This document shows positions 23,101 through 33,885 of a stretch of DNA of 64,000 bases, piece after piece. A program made the translations under genes and the position numbers. The stretch's first letter is position 1; each line of letters begins with the position of its first letter. The notes under the pieces were generated by a model. The model was not told where the DNA came from, did not search any database, and worked only from the letters and a program-made list of their open reading frames with translations. Source of the stretch: an uncultured Planctomycetales bacterium (GTDB lineage Bacteria; Planctomycetota; UBA1135); NCBI GenBank assembly GCA_964342475.1, contig CAYFGE010000001.1:315113-379112 (forward strand), read 5' to 3'.

Positions 23101-23180
23101 GCCCGCCAGGCCCCCGGCGCATCTGTCCCAGATCTGGACGGATCCGGTCACGAACTCCGGCATCCAGGCATTCTGTCTTG

Positions 23181-23186
23181 TAGGAT
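23181..23186 (+). promoter_or_regulatory. -10-like box TAGGAT upstream of paralog B
   Basis: cttg-TAGGAT-tcgaacgtcccctcctatccctctcctccccgc-TTG (23220). The leader is pyrimidine-rich and has no SD. Confidence 0.35.
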
Positions 23187-23219
23187 TCGAACGTCCCCTC
23201 CTATCCCTCTCCTCCCCGC

Positions 23220-24608
23220 TTGTTCCCCCGCCTCCACCTCCTCCTGCTGGCCACGGCCGGCCTCGCCCCGCCGATCGCGGCGCAGGGCACGGCTCTGCTC
23301 CAGGACGTGATCGAACTGCCCCGGCTGGGCGCCGGCGAGGCCGACCACGCCACGGTGGCGCTGAACGCGAACGGCGACGCCTTCGTGACCTGGCACGCGC
23401 GAAGCTCCTTCGGCGGGCCGCACCAGGTCGAGGGCGTGCTGGTCCGGCGCGGGACCGGCATGAGCTGGGAGATCCCGGCGCCGACCGACACGATCCTGCT
23501 CGGTGATCCCTCGCTGGCCCTGCTCAGCCCCTTCGAGGAGTGCACCAAGCCGGACGTGATCGCCCTGGGCGACGACTTCCTCGTGGTGTGGCCGCGCAAT
23601 GCTCCCTTCAGCGGCTACAGCCAGCTCGAAGCGGCGCTGGTCGTCGTCCCCCCCGCCGGCCCGCCGGTGGTGGACCAGCCCCTGCCCGGCCAGGGCTGGA
23701 CCGTCGACGCCAACCTGGTCGGCGGAGACGCCGGGGTGATGCCCAACCTCAGCGCGCGCGAGGCCTTCCCCGGCACCGCCGCGGTGGTCTACGCCCACGA
23801 GACCTTCGCCCAGGCCGCGCTGCGCGAGTACGAGGTCCGCGCGACGACCCTCGACTTCAGCGTCTCGCCGCCGGTGATCGGCGCTCCCGCCGCCGTCGCC
23901 AACGGAGTGCCGGTCGACAACACGACCTGGGGTCCGGCCGGCGGCCGCGTGCTGCCCGACCTGGTCGAGGACGACCACGGCTACTTCGTGCTGGCCTACG
24001 AGAGCTTCGAGCTGGCCGTCCACCACGGCCTGCCCACCGACGAGGGGCACATCGTGATCCAGCGCCTGCAGGAGAGCGGCGGCGCGTGGAGCGTGCTCGA
24101 GACGCACCTCATGAGCGGGCTGAGCCTCCAGGACCGGCAGCGGCGTCCCAGCCTGGCCACCTCGCGCGCGGACAACGAGAACACGGTCAGCATCTCGTGG
24201 TTCGAGCAGGGCAACGGCTTCCTCGACGACATCGACACCCGCTACGGCGAGATCGAGTTCCTCGGCGGCTCCCAGGTCGGCACGGTCGCGCAGTTCAACT
24301 ACGTGTTCCCGAACCTGCCCAAGCGGGACCACTCGCTGTCGGTGCCGCTGCACTCCCCCGGCTTCCGCACCGTGCTCTGCTCGCGCTGGTACAGCTTCAT
24401 GACCGGCGTGGTGGCCTTCTCGGCCCAGCCCTCGCTGCCGGAGCGCCCGCTGCCGAACCAGCCCAGCTGGTCCTGGCGCCCGGCGGCCGACCTGCTCGAG
24501 ATCGGCGCGCCCGGCACGCGCGACTCGCGGCTGATCGCGGTCAGCTACGAGGCCGACAGCCTCACCACGCCCTACGACGTGATCTTCCTGCAGCTGTTCC
24601 GCCGTTAG
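23220..24608 (+). CDS. Secreted hypothetical repeat protein, paralog B (putative 7-bladed beta-propeller-like)
   Basis: 462 aa. TTG is the only start that keeps the signal peptide MFPRLHLLLLATAGLAPPIAAQ. Blocks shared with paralog A include DHATVALNANGDAFVTWHA, ILLGDP, CTKPDVIALGDDFLVVWPR, LVEDDHGYFVLAYE and RRPSLA...NTVSISWFE. Confidence 0.7.
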   Translation: MFPRLHLLLLATAGLAPPIAAQGTALLQDVIELPRLGAGEADHATVALNANGDAFVTWHARSSFGGPHQVEGVLVRRGTGMSWEIPAPTDTILLGDPSLALLSPFEECTKPDVIALGDDFLVVWPRNAPFSGYSQLEAALVVVPPAGPPVVDQPLPGQGWTVDANLVGGDAGVMPNLSAREAFPGTAAVVYAHETFAQAALREYEVRATTLDFSVSPPVIGAPAAVANGVPVDNTTWGPAGGRVLPDLVEDDHGYFVLAYESFELAVHHGLPTDEGHIVIQRLQESGGAWSVLETHLMSGLSLQDRQRRPSLATSRADNENTVSISWFEQGNGFLDDIDTRYGEIEFLGGSQVGTVAQFNYVFPNLPKRDHSLSVPLHSPGFRTVLCSRWYSFMTGVVAFSAQPSLPERPLPNQPSWSWRPAADLLEIGAPGTRDSRLIAVSYEADSLTTPYDVIFLQLFRR

Positions 24609-25567
24609 GCGGGGCCGGCGGCGAGGCGCTCGCGCAGGGTGCGCCCGACCACCTCGACGGTGAAGCGCACGGCGTCGGTCGGATAGGGCCGCGGCTGCGG
24701 CTCGACCTTGACCAGGCCGCCCTGCTTCTTCGGCGCCACGCGCAGGTAGTAGATCTGCGAGAAGGAGCCGTCGGCGCTCAGCACCTTGAGCAGCCAGCTG
24801 TCGCTGGCGCGGAAGCACTCCTTCACCTCGGCCACCTTGCCGGACTCGCGGAAGCTCTGGCCGACGAGGGCCTCGACGGCCTCGGCGCGGAGGGGCTGGT
24901 CGATGTGGACGCAGTGCATGGCGGGATCGCGGATGATGCGGTCGGCGGCGGCGCCCTCGAGCAGGCGGGCCTCGACGCGGAAGATGTCGCGGCCCTCCTC
25001 GAGCCACTTCTGTTCGTAGCGGGTGCGGAAAGGGCGAGCGGGATCGACCTCGAGCGGGCCGAGCTCGAAGCGCCCGTCCCCCGACAGGAAGTCGTGCGCC
25101 TCGGTGGCGTACCAGCCCTGGTCGGTGACCAGTTCGAAGCTGCCGCCCGGCCGCAGCACCGTGGCGAGGACCGCGGCGAAGCCCGGGCTGCTCACGCGGT
25201 GCTTGGCGTGCTTCTCCTTGGGCCACGGCATCGGGAACTGCATGAGCACCTTCTCGAGCGAGGCGGGCGCGAACAGCTCGCGCAGCAGGGTGCGCGCGTC
25301 GCCGCGCACGAGCCGCAGGTTCTCCAGGCCGGCGCGCTCGAAGTCGCGCGCCGCGCGCCAGACGCACTCGGGCGGCTGCTCGATGCCGACGAGGTTCCAC
25401 TCCGGCTGCTGGGAGGCCCACCAACCGAGGTACTCGCCGCCGCCGAAGCCGACCTCGACGGCCAGCGGCGCGGGGCGACCGAAGATCTCCGCCCAGGCGA
25501 GCGGGTAGCGCTCGGCCTCGTGGGCCGGGACCAGGAAGCGTTCCAGCGCGGACGGGCGGGGTCGCAT
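24605..25567 (-). CDS. trmB: tRNA (guanine-N7)-methyltransferase with a C-terminal extension of about 100 aa
   Basis: An internal ATG of track ORF 24605..26134 gives MRPRPSALERF...LAVEVGFGGGEYLGWWA...LVGIEQ...MQFPMPWPKEKHAKHRV...TDQGWY...RTRYEQKW. The residues after about position 215 have no TrmB counterpart that I recognise. Confidence 0.85.
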   Translation of the reverse strand: MRPRPSALERFLVPAHEAERYPLAWAEIFGRPAPLAVEVGFGGGEYLGWWASQQPEWNLVGIEQPPECVWRAARDFERAGLENLRLVRGDARTLLRELFAPASLEKVLMQFPMPWPKEKHAKHRVSSPGFAAVLATVLRPGGSFELVTDQGWYATEAHDFLSGDGRFELGPLEVDPARPFRTRYEQKWLEEGRDIFRVEARLLEGAAADRIIRDPAMHCVHIDQPLRAEAVEALVGQSFRESGKVAEVKECFRASDSWLLKVLSADGSFSQIYYLRVAPKKQGGLVKVEPQPRPYPTDAVRFTVEVVGRTLRERLAAGPA

Positions 25568-25576
25568 GGATTCCGC

Positions 25577-25582
25577 ATTCTC
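25577..25582 (-). promoter_or_regulatory. -10-like box GAGAAT, 9 nt from the trmB ATG
   Basis: The plus strand reads attctc. The start codon ends at 25567. Confidence 0.35.
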
Positions 25583-25654
25583 CCCGCGCGGCCCGGGGGA
25601 GGGAAGTCCCCGGGAAGGGCTGGATTTCTCCCGCCCGCGAGCCGATTCCTGTCG

Positions 25655-25660
25655 TAGACT
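25655..25660 (+). promoter_or_regulatory. -10-like box TAGACT, 11 nt from the GTG of the CCCE ORF
   Basis: gtcg-TAGACT-gtacccggatc-GTG (25672). Confidence 0.4.
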
Positions 25661-25671
25661 GTACCCGGATC

Positions 25672-26043
25672 GTGTCGCACCGCCTCCATGTCCTCGTGGC
25701 CGTCCTGCTGCTGCTCCTGCCGAGCGGCGCGCAGGCCTGGGCCGCGGCGTCGCCCTGCGATCCCAGCGCCTGCTGCTGCGAGGTGCCCGAGCCCAGCCCG
25801 GGCCCGGCGGTGACCCGCGGCTGCTGCTGCGAGGCCCGGCCCGCGCCGGCCCTGCCCTTCGAGGCGCCCGCCCCCGAGCGCGCGCCCTCCGCCGGCCCCG
25901 AGCTGCCCGAGCTCGAGGCCTGCCCTGCCGCGGCCCTCCCCCTCGCCGCTCCTGTCCGACCCGTGGCCCGCGTCCTGCGCTCCCCCGCGCCGCGACCGCC
26001 ACCCCGGCCGCTGTTCCTGCTGCACGCCGCCTTCCTCTGCTGA
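25672..26043 (+). CDS. Small secreted Cys/Pro-rich protein with two CCCE motifs (unknown family)
   Basis: 123-aa ORF with near-uniform G/C at codon position 3. Signal peptide MSHRLHVLVAVLLLLLPSGAQA, then SPCDPSACCCEVPEPSPGPAVTRGCCCEARP, ending ...LFLLHAAFLC. It lies 89 nt upstream of the efflux OMF gene on the same strand. Confidence 0.55.
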   Translation: MSHRLHVLVAVLLLLLPSGAQAWAAASPCDPSACCCEVPEPSPGPAVTRGCCCEARPAPALPFEAPAPERAPSAGPELPELEACPAAALPLAAPVRPVARVLRSPAPRPPPRPLFLLHAAFLC

Positions 26044-26055
26044 TCGTCCCCGACG

Positions 26056-26079
26056 CTCCGGTCCGCCCCCGGTCCGGAG
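26056..26079 (+). terminator. Hairpin between the CCCE ORF and the OMF gene (possible attenuator or partial terminator)
   Basis: ctccggtccg-cccc-cggtccggag has a 10-bp stem with one mismatch, 13 nt after the TGA of the small ORF. No U-tract. Confidence 0.3.
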
Positions 26080-26132
26080 AAGTGGCCCTTCCCGCCCGTC
26101 CGTCGTGAACCCGATCCCGCAGAGGAACATCC

Positions 26133-27473
26133 ATGGAACACCGATCCTGGCTCGCCGCCGCGCTGCTCGTCGCGTGCGGCTGCAGCGCCCCGCCCCCGCC
26201 GCTCTTCCAGCAGCGGCTGGACGAGGCCGACGCGCGCGCCGCCGCCTTCCTGCCGCCCGCGGAACCCGTCCCGCTCTCCGCCGCCCCCGACCTCGCCGAG
26301 CTGTGGGCCGCCGCCCAGCGCGGGAACCCCGGCCTGCGCGCCGCCTACCACCGCTGGCGCGCCGAGCTCGAGGCCGCCGGCGGCGCGGGCGAGCTGCCCC
26401 AGCCGCGCCTCGGCATCGGCGCCTTCCTGTCCGCCGTCGAGACCCGCAGCGGGCCGATGCGCGGCCGGATCGGGCTGAGCCAGGCCCTGCCCTGGTTCGG
26501 CACGACCGCCGCGGCGCAGGACCGCGCCCTGGCCGCCGCTGAAGCCGCGCGCGAGGACTTCGAGGCCGCGCGCACCGCGCTGCGCGCCGAGCTGGCCCAC
26601 GCCTGGCTGGAGCTGCACGACCTGCAGCGGACCCTGGAGACGACCCGCGCCCACCGCGAGCTGCTCGTCCACCTCGAGGCCGTCTCGCGCGTGCGTTACG
26701 AGAGCGGCAGCGGCGGCCACGGCGACCTGATCCGGGCCCAGGTCGAGCTGGCCCAGCTCGAGGACCGCCTGGCCGAGCTCGAGGACCTGCGCGCGCCCTC
26801 CGTGGCGCGCCTCGAGGCCCTCCTGGGGCGCCCGGCCGGCGAACCCCTGCCGTGGCCGGCGGACGAGCTCCCGGCCTCTCCTGGGCTCCCGGAGGGCCTG
26901 GAGAGCGGCCTCGCGCAGAGCCACCCCGGCCTGCGCGCCCTCGCCGCCCGCGCCGAGGCCGCCCGCCACGGCGTGGTCCTGGCCGAGAAGGCCTACCACC
27001 CCGCCTGGACGGTGGGCGCCGAATGGACCTGGATCGGCGAGGCCGACGACCCGGCCATGCCCGACTCCGGCAAGGACGCGGTGGCCCTGACCCTGGGGGT
27101 CGAGCTGCCGCTTCGCCGGGGACGCCTCGACGCCGGCCTCGCCGCGGCCCGCGCGCGCGAGGCCGAGACCGCCGACCGGGCGGCCGACCTCGAGCGCCGC
27201 CTCGGCGCCGAACTGGCGCTGGTCCGCCACCGCCACCGGGACGCCGCCCGCCGCGTCGCCCTCTACCGCGAGGGCCTGGTCGCCAAGAGCGAAGAGGCCT
27301 TCGAGACCACGCTCACCGGCTACCAAGCGGCCACCGCCCCCTTCGACTCGGTGATCGACGCCGCGCGCCACCTGCTCGAGTTCCAGCTCGCCCAGGCCCA
27401 CGCCGAGATCGACCTCGTGCAGGCCGCGGTCGACGCCGAACGCGCCACCGGCCTCGTCCTCCTGCCCTTCTGA
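26133..27473 (+). CDS. Outer-membrane efflux factor (TolC/CusC/CzcC family), lipoprotein
   Basis: 446 aa. Lipobox-like LLVACGCS, then ...LAELWAAAQRGNPGLRAAYHRWRAELEAAG... and two OEP repeats. An AGAGGAA SD lies upstream. Confidence 0.85.
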   Translation: MEHRSWLAAALLVACGCSAPPPPLFQQRLDEADARAAAFLPPAEPVPLSAAPDLAELWAAAQRGNPGLRAAYHRWRAELEAAGGAGELPQPRLGIGAFLSAVETRSGPMRGRIGLSQALPWFGTTAAAQDRALAAAEAAREDFEAARTALRAELAHAWLELHDLQRTLETTRAHRELLVHLEAVSRVRYESGSGGHGDLIRAQVELAQLEDRLAELEDLRAPSVARLEALLGRPAGEPLPWPADELPASPGLPEGLESGLAQSHPGLRALAARAEAARHGVVLAEKAYHPAWTVGAEWTWIGEADDPAMPDSGKDAVALTLGVELPLRRGRLDAGLAAARAREAETADRAADLERRLGAELALVRHRHRDAARRVALYREGLVAKSEEAFETTLTGYQAATAPFDSVIDAARHLLEFQLAQAHAEIDLVQAAVDAERATGLVLLPF

Positions 27474-27478
27474 CGACC

Positions 27479-29401
27479 ATGCGCCTCACGCCCACCCGCG
27501 CCGTCCTCCTCGCTCTGCTCCTCCTCGCCCTCGGCTGGGGCCTCGGCCACCGCGCCGCCGCGCCCGCGCCCGCGCCCGCGCCGGACGCCGCCTCGGAGCA
27601 GACGGCCAGCGCCGAGCCGACGATCTGGACCTGCTCCATGCACCCCTCGGTGAAGCTGCCCGCGCCGGGGCAGTGCCCGATCTGCTTCATGGACCTGATC
27701 CCGCTGGTCGAGGACCCCTCCGCCGGCGCGCATCCCACCCGCGTGCGCCTCTCGGCCGGCGCCGCCGCCCTGGCCGGCATCCGCACCGCCGAGGTCGCGC
27801 GGCTCGACGTCGCCCACGAGCGCACCCTCTCGGGCAAGGTGGCCCTCGACGAGACCCGCGTGGCGACGATCACCACCTGGGTGCCGGGCCGCCTCGAGCG
27901 CCTCTACGTCGACTTCACCGGCGTGCGCGTGCGCCCCGGCGACCACCTGGTCGAGCTCTACAGCCCGCAGCTCTACGCGGCGCAGCAGGAGCTCAAGCAG
28001 GCGCGCGCCGCCGCCGCCCGCCTGACCGGGGCGAGCGGCAGCCTGGGGAGGGTGAGCGACGCGACGGTCGCCGCGGCGCGCAGCAAGCTGCGCCTGCTCG
28101 GGCTCGACGAGGCCCAGGTCGCCGAGATCGAGGCCAGCGGAGAGCTGCTCGAACGGCTCACCCTGCACGCCCCCATCGGCGGCGTGGTGATCGAGAAGCA
28201 GGCCGTCGAGGGGCGCTACGTCGACACCGGCACGCCGATCTACACGATCGCCGACCTGAGCCGCGTGTGGGTCGAGCTGGAGGCCTACGAGACCGACCTG
28301 GCCTGGCTGCGCTACGGCCAGGAAGTCACCTTCCAGGTCGAGGCCTACCCCGGCGAGGTCTTCCACGGCCGCATCGCCTTCGTCGACCCGCTGCTCGACG
28401 ACGCCACGCGCACGGTGCGCGTGCGCCTCAACGTGGCGAACCCGGAGCAGAAGCTGAAGCCCGAGATGTTCGTGCGCGCCACCGTCCGCGCCGAGCTGGG
28501 CGCGGACGGCCGCGTGGTCGACGCCGAGCTGGCCGGGCAGTGGATGTGCCCGATGCACCCCGAGGAGGTCTCCGACGCGCCGGGCGCCTGCGGCTCCTGC
28601 GGCATGGACCTCGTGCCCGCCGCCGAGCTCGGCTTCCGCCCGCGGGCCTCGGCGGAGTTGCCGCTCGTGGTGCCCGCCACCGCGCCGCTGCTGACCGGGC
28701 GCCGCGCGGTGGTCTACGTCGCCGCCGGGACGCCCGAGGAACCGGCCTTCGACGGCCGCGTGGTCAGCCTCGGCCCGCGGGCCGGCGACTGGTACGTGGT
28801 GCTCGACGGCCTCGCGGAGGGCGAGCGCGTGGTGGTGAACGGCGCCTTCAAGCTCGACAGCGAGCTGCAGCTGCAGGGCCGGACCAGCATGATGCACCCG
28901 GGCGAGGAGGAGACCGCGCCGGCACCGGCCGACGCGGTCCCGGCTGCCTTCCAGGAGCAGCTCGGCGCCTTGCTGCCGCACGCCCTGGCCGTCCAGGTGG
29001 CGCTGGCGGCGGACGATCTCGAGGCGGCCCGCGGCCCCGCCAGCGCCCTGGGCGCGGCCCTCGACGCGGTGGCCGACGCGGCCCTGCTCGGGGAGGCCCG
29101 CTCGGCCTGGAACGGCGCCCGCGCCGGCATCGCGCGCGGCGCGGAGGGCTTGGCCGCGGCCGAGGACATCGAGGCGGCGCGCGCCGCCTTCCAGCCGCTG
29201 AGCGACGGCCTGATCGTCGCCCTCGCGCGCTTCGGCTACCGCGGCGGGCCGACCGAGGTCCAGCGCAGCCACTGCCCGATGGCCTTCGACGACCTGGGCG
29301 CGGAGTGGCTGCAGCTGCCCGGCACCCTGGCCAACCCCTACTTCGGCTCCGCCATGCTGCGCTGCGGCACGGACGAGGGCCGCTTCACCGCGGAGCGCTG
29401 A
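27479..29401 (+). CDS. Efflux RND periplasmic adaptor (CusB/CzcB family) with two heavy-metal-binding domains and a DUF3347-like C-terminal domain
   Basis: An internal ATG of track ORF 26852..29401 gives a 640-aa protein. WTCSMHPSVKLPAPGQCPICFMDL is at 27625-27697 and WMCPMHPEEVSDAPGACGSCGMDL at 28541-28612. The C-terminus ends HCPMAFDDLGAEWLQLPGTLANPYFGSAMLRCG. Confidence 0.85.
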   Translation: MRLTPTRAVLLALLLLALGWGLGHRAAAPAPAPAPDAASEQTASAEPTIWTCSMHPSVKLPAPGQCPICFMDLIPLVEDPSAGAHPTRVRLSAGAAALAGIRTAEVARLDVAHERTLSGKVALDETRVATITTWVPGRLERLYVDFTGVRVRPGDHLVELYSPQLYAAQQELKQARAAAARLTGASGSLGRVSDATVAAARSKLRLLGLDEAQVAEIEASGELLERLTLHAPIGGVVIEKQAVEGRYVDTGTPIYTIADLSRVWVELEAYETDLAWLRYGQEVTFQVEAYPGEVFHGRIAFVDPLLDDATRTVRVRLNVANPEQKLKPEMFVRATVRAELGADGRVVDAELAGQWMCPMHPEEVSDAPGACGSCGMDLVPAAELGFRPRASAELPLVVPATAPLLTGRRAVVYVAAGTPEEPAFDGRVVSLGPRAGDWYVVLDGLAEGERVVVNGAFKLDSELQLQGRTSMMHPGEEETAPAPADAVPAAFQEQLGALLPHALAVQVALAADDLEAARGPASALGAALDAVADAALLGEARSAWNGARAGIARGAEGLAAAEDIEAARAAFQPLSDGLIVALARFGYRGGPTEVQRSHCPMAFDDLGAEWLQLPGTLANPYFGSAMLRCGTDEGRFTAER

Positions 29402-29404
29402 GCC

Positions 29405-33061
<3,657 letters not shown>

Positions 33062-33135: not shown

Positions 33136-33885
33136 ATGAACCCGATCCGCCTCCTCGTCGCGGCCCTCGCCCTGGCCGCCCCCCTCGCCGCCCAGGCCGG
33201 CCCGCCCAAGGGCCCGCCGCAGCCGGCCGACCTCGTCGCCCAGACCACCTGCCCCATCTCCGGTGAGGAGCTCACCGGCGGCGAGGGCGAGAAGGAGGTC
33301 GTCTACGAGGGCCAGAAGATCCGCCTGTGCTGCGCCAAGTGCGTCAAGAAGTTCGACGAGTTCCCGGACGCCGTCGTCTACGGCATGTACCGCCAGGGCG
33401 TGAAGCCCGAGAACACGCAGACCACCTGCGTGGTCAGCGGCGAGGAGCTCGGCGACGACTACGAGAGCTTCTGGGTGATGAACAAGGAGCTGCGCGTCTG
33501 CTGCAAGAAGTGCCTGGCCAAGGTCGCCAAGGACCCGGCCGTCTACTTCGACCAGCTGCAGGGCCGCAAGAAGCAGACCCACTGCCCGGTGATGGGCGGC
33601 GAGATCGACCCCGAGGTCTACTCGGTGGTCCAGGGCCAGAAGGTCTACCACTGCTGCCCCGGCTGCGAGGGCAAGATGAAGGCCGACCCGGCCAAGTTCT
33701 TCGCCGCCGAAGCCGCCAAGGGCGTGGTCTTCGAGCCGGCCACGAACATGTGCGTGGTCATGGAGGAGCCCAACGAGGACAAGCTGTGGTGGGTCACCTA
33801 TGAGGGCCGCCGCATCCACTTCTGCTGCCGCAAGTGCGTCGGCCGCTTCGTGAAGGACCCGGCCAAGTACCTGGCGATGATGTGA
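33136..33885 (+). CDS. Secreted protein made of four tandem YHS/TRASH-like Cys-motif repeats
   Basis: 249 aa with signal peptide MNPIRLLVAALALAAPLAAQA. Four units follow the pattern C-x(22-25)-CC-x2-C-x3-[FVM]-x2-[DF]P: QTTCPISGEEL..LCCAKCVKKFDEFP, QTTCVVSGEEL..VCCKKCLAKVAKDP, QTHCPVMGGEI..HCCPGCEGKMKADP and NMCVVMEEP..FCCRKCVGRFVKDP. Confidence 0.75.
   Translation: MNPIRLLVAALALAAPLAAQAGPPKGPPQPADLVAQTTCPISGEELTGGEGEKEVVYEGQKIRLCCAKCVKKFDEFPDAVVYGMYRQGVKPENTQTTCVVSGEELGDDYESFWVMNKELRVCCKKCLAKVAKDPAVYFDQLQGRKKQTHCPVMGGEIDPEVYSVVQGQKVYHCCPGCEGKMKADPAKFFAAEAAKGVVFEPATNMCVVMEEPNEDKLWWVTYEGRRIHFCCRKCVGRFVKDPAKYLAMM

Follow-up and report, generated by a model that had tools for sequence, protein, structure and literature searches.

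A cysteine-rich leader open reading frame upstream of a planctomycete metal-efflux operon as a candidate SilD/CusD-type nascent-chain metal sensor

The stretch of DNA analysed here, referred to as the window, comprises 64,000 nucleotides (nt) of contig CAYFGE010000001.1 (GenBank assembly GCA_964342475.1, positions 315,113 to 379,112 of the forward strand) from an uncultured Planctomycetales bacterium. It contains one copy of a small open reading frame (ORF) of 123 codons on the plus strand (25672-26043), with a GTG start and a TGA stop. The first-pass annotation had placed this ORF directly upstream of a resistance-nodulation-division (RND) metal-efflux operon, and the genes that follow on the same strand bear this out. 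They encode an outer-membrane efflux protein (OEP) of the TolC-NodT type with a lipobox-like LVAC sequence (26133-27473; PF02321, 1.3e-39); a periplasmic adaptor, or membrane fusion protein (MFP), of the CusB type, with domain matches to two HMBD domains and DUF3347 (27479-29401); a heavy-metal RND permease of the CusA/CzcA family (29405-33061; TIGR00914, 755.8 bits against a cut-off of 701); and, last in the operon, a secreted protein with four YHS/TRASH-like Cys repeats (33136-33885; PF04945, 1e-12). The divergent upstream gene (24605-25567, minus strand) encodes a Methyltransf_4 methyltransferase in the orthologs. The OEP gene is presumed to be both the first pump gene and the target of control. 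It lies 89 nt downstream of the small ORF, the equivalent spacer being 66-110 nt in related loci, and an OEP gene directly follows the small ORF in all 12 loci examined. Loci with this arrangement (the window, L001, L004, L005, L009-L012 and L015-L019) represent about eight independent lineages whose flanking genes are unrelated to one another; wherever the contig extends far enough, the OEP gene is followed by genes for an MFP with HMBD and an RND permease, in that order.

The small ORF is a real gene under purifying selection. Three orthologous clusters from Planctomycetota metagenome-assembled genomes (MAGs), with 92, 57 and 55% identity, occupy syntenic loci, and all of them encode proteins of exactly 123 residues. 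The pairwise ratio of nonsynonymous to synonymous substitution rates (dN/dS) is 0.30-0.60 for the small ORF, compared with 0.16-0.61 for the first 288 codons of the OEP gene, with dS reaching about 0.9 between ortholog pairs. The GC-rich third codon positions that were first taken to support coding are confirmed, with G+C fractions of 0.82/0.66/0.93 at the three codon positions of the small ORF and 0.84/0.55/0.96 in the adjoining OEP gene, in a window that is 74% G+C overall. Because high G+C content generates many long spurious ORFs in the window, and because the small ORF lacks a Shine-Dalgarno (SD) sequence and starts with GTG, it could be argued that the ORF arose by chance in an intergenic region of 74% G+C. 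That reading is extremely improbable. The orthologs keep both the frame and its length, dN/dS stays under 1, and the more distant orthologs start with ATG rather than the GTG of the window; a profile search recovered 45 representatives, and family members in genomes of 49-60% G+C use different codons. The chance-ORF reading is thus refuted by the conserved frame and length, by dN/dS and by the wider family. The homologs also retain the Cys runs, whose absence, like loss of the frame, had been named in the first-pass annotation as grounds for refutation.

The wider family was defined by an exhaustive HMMER search with a four-sequence profile against 1.84 billion representative sequences (E <= 1e-3). 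The 45 matching proteins are nearly all 116-138 residues long and align end to end. Residue conservation was taken from an alignment of 43 family sequences, and motif spacings from 61 non-redundant members. The hosts belong to the Planctomycetota, with one member in a MAG labelled as Myxococcota. Pfam and NCBIfam scans of the window protein and 43 relatives matched no family; the family has no model in either database, and its members are hence annotated as "hypothetical protein".

The N-terminal part of the protein is consistent with export. A predicted signal peptide, MSHRLHVLVAVLLLLLPSGAQA, spans residues 1-22 (25672-25737), with cleavage predicted before W23; its n-, h- and c-regions can be read in the sequence as R4, the hydrophobic run LHVLVAVLLLLL, and PSGAQA immediately before the Trp. 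These regions are kept in the family, the consensus N-terminus being xxxRxxxLxAxLLLLLPGxxxA. An AlphaFold2 model built with the family alignment has a single helix at residues 2-25, corresponding to the signal peptide, and no tertiary structure (predicted template-modelling score 0.25), in keeping with the signal peptide proposed in the first-pass annotation. A lipoprotein was considered and rejected: no lipobox is conserved before C29.

The mature part of the protein carries two Cys clusters. The small ORF encodes nine Cys in total (C29, C34-36, C51-53, C84 and C123), and C29, C34, C36 and C51-C53 are at least 90% conserved in the 43-sequence alignment. The first cluster consists of C29-D30 followed by C34-C35-C36-E37 (25756-25782, with the Cys-Cys-Cys-Glu run at 25771-25782), and the second of C51-C52-C53-E54 (25822-25833). 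Each Cys-Cys-Cys-Glu run is encoded by the 12-mer TGCTGCTGCGAG, which occurs exactly twice in the window, at the two positions first reported; shuffled sequences give 0.01 copies. The runs had been described as 20 residues apart, but their starts are 17 residues apart, with 13 residues between the runs. The repeated 12-mer reflects preferred codons for Cys-Cys-Cys-Glu and is no DNA repeat as such; orthologs use TGT and GAA at the sites that match the window's copies of TGCTGCTGCGAG. The distance from the first to the second cluster is 13-23 residues across the family.

A candidate ribosome-arrest motif lies close to the C-terminus. R108-P109-P110-P111 (25993-26004) is a RAPP-like RxPP motif whose prolines are 15 to 13 residues from the C-terminus. 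Fujiwara et al. identified RAPP and RGPP as robust arrest cores that partly tolerate Pro, Ser or Asp at position 2, and RxPP in which x is G, A, S or P is described as inducing arrest (PMC12992588). Bacterial proteomes avoid RAPP and RGPP, yet small secreted proteins encoded ahead of metal genes are enriched for these motifs close to the C-terminus (PMC12992588). RxPP occurs in 39 of the 61 family members, with x mostly A, G or P (RAPP in 20, RPPP in 12 including the window, RGPP in 5, RSPP in 1 and RTPP in 1). The Arg is 16 residues from the C-terminus in 35 of these members and 15 residues in the other 4, and in most family members the last PP begins 14 residues from the C-terminus.

The remainder of the protein is a 12-residue tail, R-P-L-F-L-L-H-A-A-F-L-C (26005-26040), and the protein ends SPAPRPPPRPLFLLHAAFLC. 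The hydrophobic LFLLHAAFLC had been noted as an incidental feature. It is present, and it is instead part of the most conserved region of the protein: the 12-residue tail is invariant in four close orthologs, and the family consensus C-terminus is PRxPPxPLFLxHxxFLx, giving a C-terminal module of R-x-P-P-x-P-L-F-L-x-H-x-x-F-L-x-COOH. Members at loci with 49% G+C keep the tail peptide with different codons, which places the selection at the peptide level. The tail was also considered, and rejected, as a membrane anchor or sorting signal: it has only about 10 hydrophobic residues and is shared, beside an arrest motif, with the SilD protein described below. The spacing of these elements is also tightly constrained. 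The second Cys cluster is 67-71 residues from the C-terminus in 55 of the 61 members, and 51-55 residues from the Arg of RxPP in 38 of the 39 members that have the motif, with a mode of 54. The Pro-rich linker between the second cluster and RxPP varies in sequence while its length is closely kept.

A small, Cys-rich, signal-peptide-bearing peptide with a conserved C-terminus could also be the precursor of a ribosomally synthesized and post-translationally modified peptide (RiPP), a bufferin-like precursor, or a sorting-signal protein, with the Cys residues modified after translation. This is very unlikely. The conserved neighbours are the OEP, MFP and RND genes only, with no conserved gene for a modifying enzyme such as MNIO/DUF692 or radical SAM; the flanking genes vary by lineage. 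The short tail and the lack of a conserved lipobox likewise speak against a sorted or anchored protein.

The end of the small ORF is predicted to pair with the ribosome-binding site (RBS) of the OEP gene. Unguided RNAalifold folding of four close orthologs pairs UUCCUCUGC-U-GAUCG (26032-26046, plus strand) with CGAUC..GCAGAGGAA (26112-26127, plus strand). The 5' arm of this anti-RBS helix is formed by the last three codons of the small ORF (UUC CUC UGC), the UGA stop codon and the following UCG, and the 3' arm contains the SD sequence of the OEP gene, GAGGAA (26122-26127). Inside this helix is a second hairpin, CUCCGG..CCGGAG, within which CCG and CGG pair in turn (26056-26079, plus strand). 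The window RNA folds at -54 kcal/mol (z = -2.7). RNAalifold predicts the same closing helix for eight Planctomycetota loci, some of which have only 34-36% protein identity and 58-60% G+C.

Covariation supports both elements. Five pairs of the anti-RBS helix have changed on both sides among the Planctomycetota loci; where the ORF ends in AUU UGA in place of UGC UGA, the partner sequence upstream of the OEP start is altered to match. Counting pairs over the helix, 96.8% of cells are paired, compared with 40-54% when the partner is slid by 1-3 columns. The inner hairpin shows compensatory changes from CUCCGG/CCGGAG in the window to CGGACCGG/CCGGUCCG in L004 and CGGUCCGG/CCGGACCG in L001. A duplex-energy test against random windows from the same locus gave fractions of control windows scoring at least as high of 0.03-0.27 in the window's clade, 0.005 in L015/L018 and 0.11-0.61 outside the Planctomycetota. 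This test discriminates poorly in GC-rich DNA, and covariation was relied on instead. Intergenic stem-loops are also present in the loci outside the Planctomycetota. No T-run follows the inner hairpin and a scan for intrinsic terminators was empty; a scan of 25400-26300 against Rfam had no match. Separately, a small hairpin (GGC.GCUGU...ACG.CG.GCC; 26006-26031, plus strand) is predicted between the RPPP codons and the anti-RBS arm; its 5' arm would be occluded by a ribosome that stalls at RPPP.

Constrained folding was used to place a ribosome on this RNA. The SD of the OEP gene has a predicted unpaired probability of about 0 in the free mRNA, and likewise with a ribosome parked at RPPP; it opens only with a ribosome on the last codon or the stop codon. 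The helix alone would make OEP translation depend on ribosomes finishing the small ORF. A rival reading is plain translational coupling with no sensing, in which the small ORF is a constitutively translated opener of the OEP RBS and the Cys and Pro motifs are minor or unrelated. This is improbable. It leaves unexplained the Cys clusters and their fixed spacing of 51-55 residues to RxPP, the presence of an arrest-type motif that bacterial proteomes otherwise avoid (PMC12992588), and the fact that each locus examined links the ORF exclusively to a metal-efflux operon. Also rejected was classical amino-acid attenuation, with the ORF as a Cys-codon leader: the ORF is 123 codons long, over 200 nt separate its Cys codons from the intergenic hairpin, and cysteine biosynthesis is not the function of the operon.

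Exported leader proteins that regulate metal genes provide a precedent. CutF of Rhodobacter capsulatus, encoded in cutFOG, is a nascent copper sensor that is exported co-translationally (PMC9973294; bioRxiv 10.1101/2025.02.05.636593). CutF-like proteins have been defined by rules: such a protein has fewer than 150 residues, carries a signal peptide and a Cys motif, has PP among its last 15 residues, and is encoded less than 100 nt ahead of another gene on the same strand (PMC9973294). Judged by its sequence, the small ORF would fall within this definition, with its 123 residues, its PP position, its 89-nt spacer and a putative Cys/His motif. Both systems have an mRNA structure that shields the downstream RBS and a protein predicted to be unstructured, a likeness drawn from the rules and from the published description. 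The differences are considerable. CutF has PPP 2 residues from its C-terminus, and the stalled ribosome melts the stem-loop, whereas RxPP in the small ORF lies 12 codons before the stop codon. The gene downstream of cutF encodes a multicopper oxidase rather than an OEP, and the CutF sensor is CxxxC rather than Cys3...Cys3.

The second precedent is CruR (Bp2923) of Bordetella pertussis, a DUF2946 (PF11162) protein. It is encoded by an upstream ORF with an export signal, and its CXXC is at a conserved distance of 45 residues from a C-terminal RAPP; copper relieves the stall, Rho termination follows, and the uptake system is repressed (PMC9426467). The small ORF resembles cruR in its export signal, in the conserved distance between a Cys motif and a RAPP-type motif (45 residues in CruR, 54 in the small ORF), in having little predicted structure, and in heading a metal-homeostasis operon. 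If the direction of the switch proposed below is correct, metal would relieve the stall in both cases. CruR differs in acting through Rho-dependent termination on an uptake system, in the position of its RAPP 3 residues from the C-terminus, and in its 162-nt spacer. For its part, the window protein has no match to PF11162 at E <= 0.01, has a CCC...CCC sensor in place of CXXC, and has the Arg of RxPP 16 residues from the C-terminus.

The RAPP/RGPP arrest peptides (ApcA, ApdA, ApdP and a Streptomyces set; PMC7897499, PMC10951233, PMC12992588) form a third comparison. Like the product of the small ORF, they are small secreted proteins encoded upstream of a regulated gene, with an R-[A/G/P]-P-P core close to the C-terminus, and metal-related downstream genes have been reported for this class (PMC12992588). 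They differ in being mostly Sec/YidC monitors, and none has been reported with a conserved 12-residue hydrophobic tail or Cys3 clusters.

The nearest known counterparts are SilD and CusD of Cupriavidus metallidurans CH34, the products of the first genes of silDCBA on pMOL30 and of cusDCBAF. Ozturk et al. found that OEP genes of RND pumps are the commonest downstream neighbours of CutF-like proteins, and named SilD and CusD of Cupriavidus among these proteins (PMC9973294). Like the window protein, they are small, have a putative N-terminal export signal, and are encoded by the gene immediately preceding the TolC/OEP gene in an operon for an RND pump of the Cu/Ag type. SilD from pMOL30 of Cupriavidus metallidurans CH34 (L020, 10024-10419, minus strand) has 131 residues and is encoded 72 nt upstream of the TolC-family gene silC. 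Its C-terminus is NPVPRPPPRPLAILHCCFRI; the tail modules, PRPPPRPLAILHCCFRI in SilD and PRPPPRPLFLLHAAFLC in the window, are nearly identical and fit the pattern R-x-P-P-x-P-L-x-[IL]-L-H-x-x-F-x-x-COOH, and the SilD tail RPLAILHCCFRI aligns with the 12-residue tail of the window protein. In hhalign comparisons, the profile of the small-ORF family matched the SilD sequence with an E-value of 1.6e-5 and a 27-member SilD-family alignment with a probability of 93% (E 3.5e-7), the latter over the last 29 columns only. The SilD-family consensus tail is RAPPPPLAILHCCFRx, with the Arg at -16 as in the small-ORF family. Two SilD relatives carry PF11162. Folding of the silD-silC spacer pairs the last two codons and stop codon of silD with the SD and AUG of silC.

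The similarity is confined to this C-terminal module. Only the last 20-29 columns align, and full-length homology including the AAAYAC...LCxxHC region was not found by hhalign; tblastn against plasmids found nothing. The SilD sensor region is AAAYAC...LCxxHCQ (CxxxC plus His) rather than two Cys3 clusters, and CQAHC lies 46 residues from the Arg, compared with 54 in the small ORF. The hosts differ too, SilD coming from Betaproteobacteria and the small-ORF family from Planctomycetota and the one Myxococcota-labelled MAG. The SilD-family tail has a nearly invariant His-Cys-Cys (LHCCF) after RAPP, providing potential metal ligands that are translated only past the presumed arrest point; about half of the small-ORF family has a His and a terminal Cys at comparable tail positions.

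The conservation pattern bears directly on whether the mature protein is the functional product. The protein could be a disordered, thiolate-rich periplasmic metal binder, either a CusF-like chaperone or a SilE/PcoE-like sponge, with the anti-RBS helix providing ordinary coupling. The signal peptide, the six to nine Cys conserved in two clusters, the Cu/Ag-type efflux operon and the predicted disorder, as in SilE, are all consistent with this model, and a metal-binding role would be compatible with a regulatory one. We nevertheless regard it as unlikely. Conservation is highest in the RxPP tail and in the linker length rather than in a fold, and a sponge or chaperone needs no fixed distance to the stop codon. 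The tail is common to SilD, whose metal motif is different. Vicinal Cys triplets would be prone to oxidation in the oxidising periplasm. Finally, CutF and CruR are undetectable in vivo and are thought to be quickly degraded (PMC9973294, PMC9426467). The first-pass annotation had suggested a metal-sensing module, a metal-buffering module or a cis-regulatory leader. A sensor that is at the same time a leader is favoured, because the fixed RAPP-like tail is shared with SilD, the distance from Cys to motif is conserved, the last codons pair with the RBS with compensatory changes, and CutF and CruR provide a precedent (PMC9973294, PMC9426467). The stable buffer gains nothing from the analysis, since the protein has no fold beyond the signal peptide and the operon already has a secreted protein with four YHS/TRASH repeats.

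By sequence and by analogy, we consider it reasonably probable that the small ORF encodes a nascent-chain metal sensor of the CutF/CruR class, more precisely of the SilD/CusD type, and that it controls translation of the pump. In the mechanism that we infer, from export, arrest and metal binding to the identity of the metal and the direction of the switch, translation of the efflux operon would begin with the small ORF as its first cistron, and the product would act mainly as a nascent chain. The signal peptide would feed the growing chain into the Sec translocon, and the ribosome would pause at R108-P-P-P111. During this pause, the two Cys3 clusters would be 57 and 74 residues from the peptidyl-transferase centre. 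The ribosome exit tunnel accommodates about 35 residues. From general dimensions, the clusters would then be beyond the tunnel, at about the periplasmic side of the translocon, where binding of a Cu(I)/Ag(I)-type metal could alter the force on the chain and hence the duration of the pause. Meanwhile the RBS of the OEP gene would be sequestered in the helix by the end of the small ORF, namely its final three codons and stop codon together with the 3 nt that follow. The helix would open only to a ribosome that has passed the pause and arrived at the stop codon, so that the pump is translated only once the leader has been completed. A ribosome at RxPP would be unable to reach the anti-RBS arm; on the simplest logic, the stall would then withhold pump translation and its release would permit it. 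The direction of the switch, suggested by this geometry, would combine CruR-like stall logic with a CutF-like RNA switch: release of the pause would turn the pump on.

Several observations weigh against this model. RxPP is 12 codons before the stop codon, as opposed to 3 residues from the C-terminus in CruR and 2 in CutF, so that a stalled ribosome is predicted to be unable to reach the helix itself. The conserved tail after RxPP is unexplained by either the CutF or the CruR model. RPPP may cause a weaker, EF-P-sensitive pause than RAPP or RGPP, and strict RxPP is absent from 22 of the 61 family members, which have APP, GPP, SPP or other variants instead. The helix is well supported in the Planctomycetota only, in about three independent lineages, and no claim is made for the family as a whole; in four loci outside this phylum, pairing between the last codons and the RBS is at the background level (fractions of 0.11-0.61 in the duplex-energy test). 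Much of the helix is invariant, which could result from coding and SD constraints. Lastly, DUF2946 is silent for the window protein and 42 of 43 relatives, the one remaining relative matching only at E = 0.99.

A bolder proposal, which we hold only tentatively as a possibility, is that the SilD-type tail marks a separate "pull-to-open" transmembrane metal switch with a logic opposite to that of CutF. With the arrest motif set 12 codons ahead of an anti-RBS helix made from the final codons, the stall would hold the pump off, and Cys3 clusters folded around metal at the periplasmic mouth of SecYEG would pull the chain free. A still more unusual version would have the His and Cys residues of the tail (LHCCF in SilD, LHAAFLC in the window) sense metal inside the exit tunnel when the ribosome is at the stop codon. 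Sensing within the ribosomal exit tunnel is known from TnaC, which responds to tryptophan.

The sequence upstream of the small ORF probably contains the promoter of the operon, at 25641-25660 on the plus strand. A conserved motif, GCCGATTCCTGTCGTAGACT, ends there in a -10-like hexamer, TAGACT (25655-25660); the motif is unique in the window, and the five close orthologs all keep it. Within the clade of the window the hexamer forms part of a conserved 20-nt motif, GCCGATTNNTGNCGTAGRCT. Similar -10-like hexamers (TAnAcT; TAGACT, TACACT or TAGGCT) occur 6-11 nt before the start codon in the independent lineages L015/L018 and L009/L011 as well. A scan for the sigma-70 consensus found no full promoter, and the promoter reading depends on the conserved hexamer alone. 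TAGACT lies 11 nt before the start codon and no SD precedes the small ORF; together these features suggest that the operon mRNA is leaderless or nearly so.

Some features of the locus stand apart from the regulatory question. The high G+C content produces very long spurious antisense ORFs across it, for example one of 1417 residues at 23148-27401 on the minus strand. The two HMBD domains of the MFP are N-terminal (WTCSMHP...CPICFMDL) and internal, and its DUF3347 is C-terminal. The RND permease, with 1218 residues, is about 170 residues longer than a typical CusA/CzcA protein, and its match to the Pfam family ACR_tran is broken into four stretches, as if a segment had been inserted somewhere between residues 530 and 860 or thereabouts. 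Its orthologs have 1218-1241 residues, and the proteins of more distant loci have 1076-1157. A search of the permease for the heavy-metal-efflux signature (VEN motif), as a guide to metal specificity, gave no match to the pattern used. The last protein of the operon (249 residues, secreted) has repeats of the form T/H/M-C-P/V-x-x-G/E...CCxxC and is by its sequence a candidate periplasmic metallochaperone. In locus L001 there are two YHS/TRASH-type genes with an ORF of 69 residues between them.

Post-transcriptional metal sensing by nascent exported leaders has been described only in 2022-2025; the two cases, CruR and CutF, concern an uptake receptor and an oxidase. Leader ORFs before RND efflux pumps, such as silD and cusD, are reported to be the commonest context and are experimentally uncharacterised. 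The class to which the small ORF is assigned, the SilD/CutF type, is thus known; what is new here is the Cys3...Cys3 sensor, with its two clusters 13-23 residues apart. The locus adds a compact Planctomycetota family, lacking a database model, that shares the C-terminal module of SilD, together with a strict ruler of 54 residues from sensor to RxPP and 16 residues from the motif to the C-terminus. It also adds a concrete, covarying RNA target in the pairing of the last codons with the RBS. These features bear on how periplasmic metal could induce efflux pumps whose genes lack a two-component or MerR regulator next to them.

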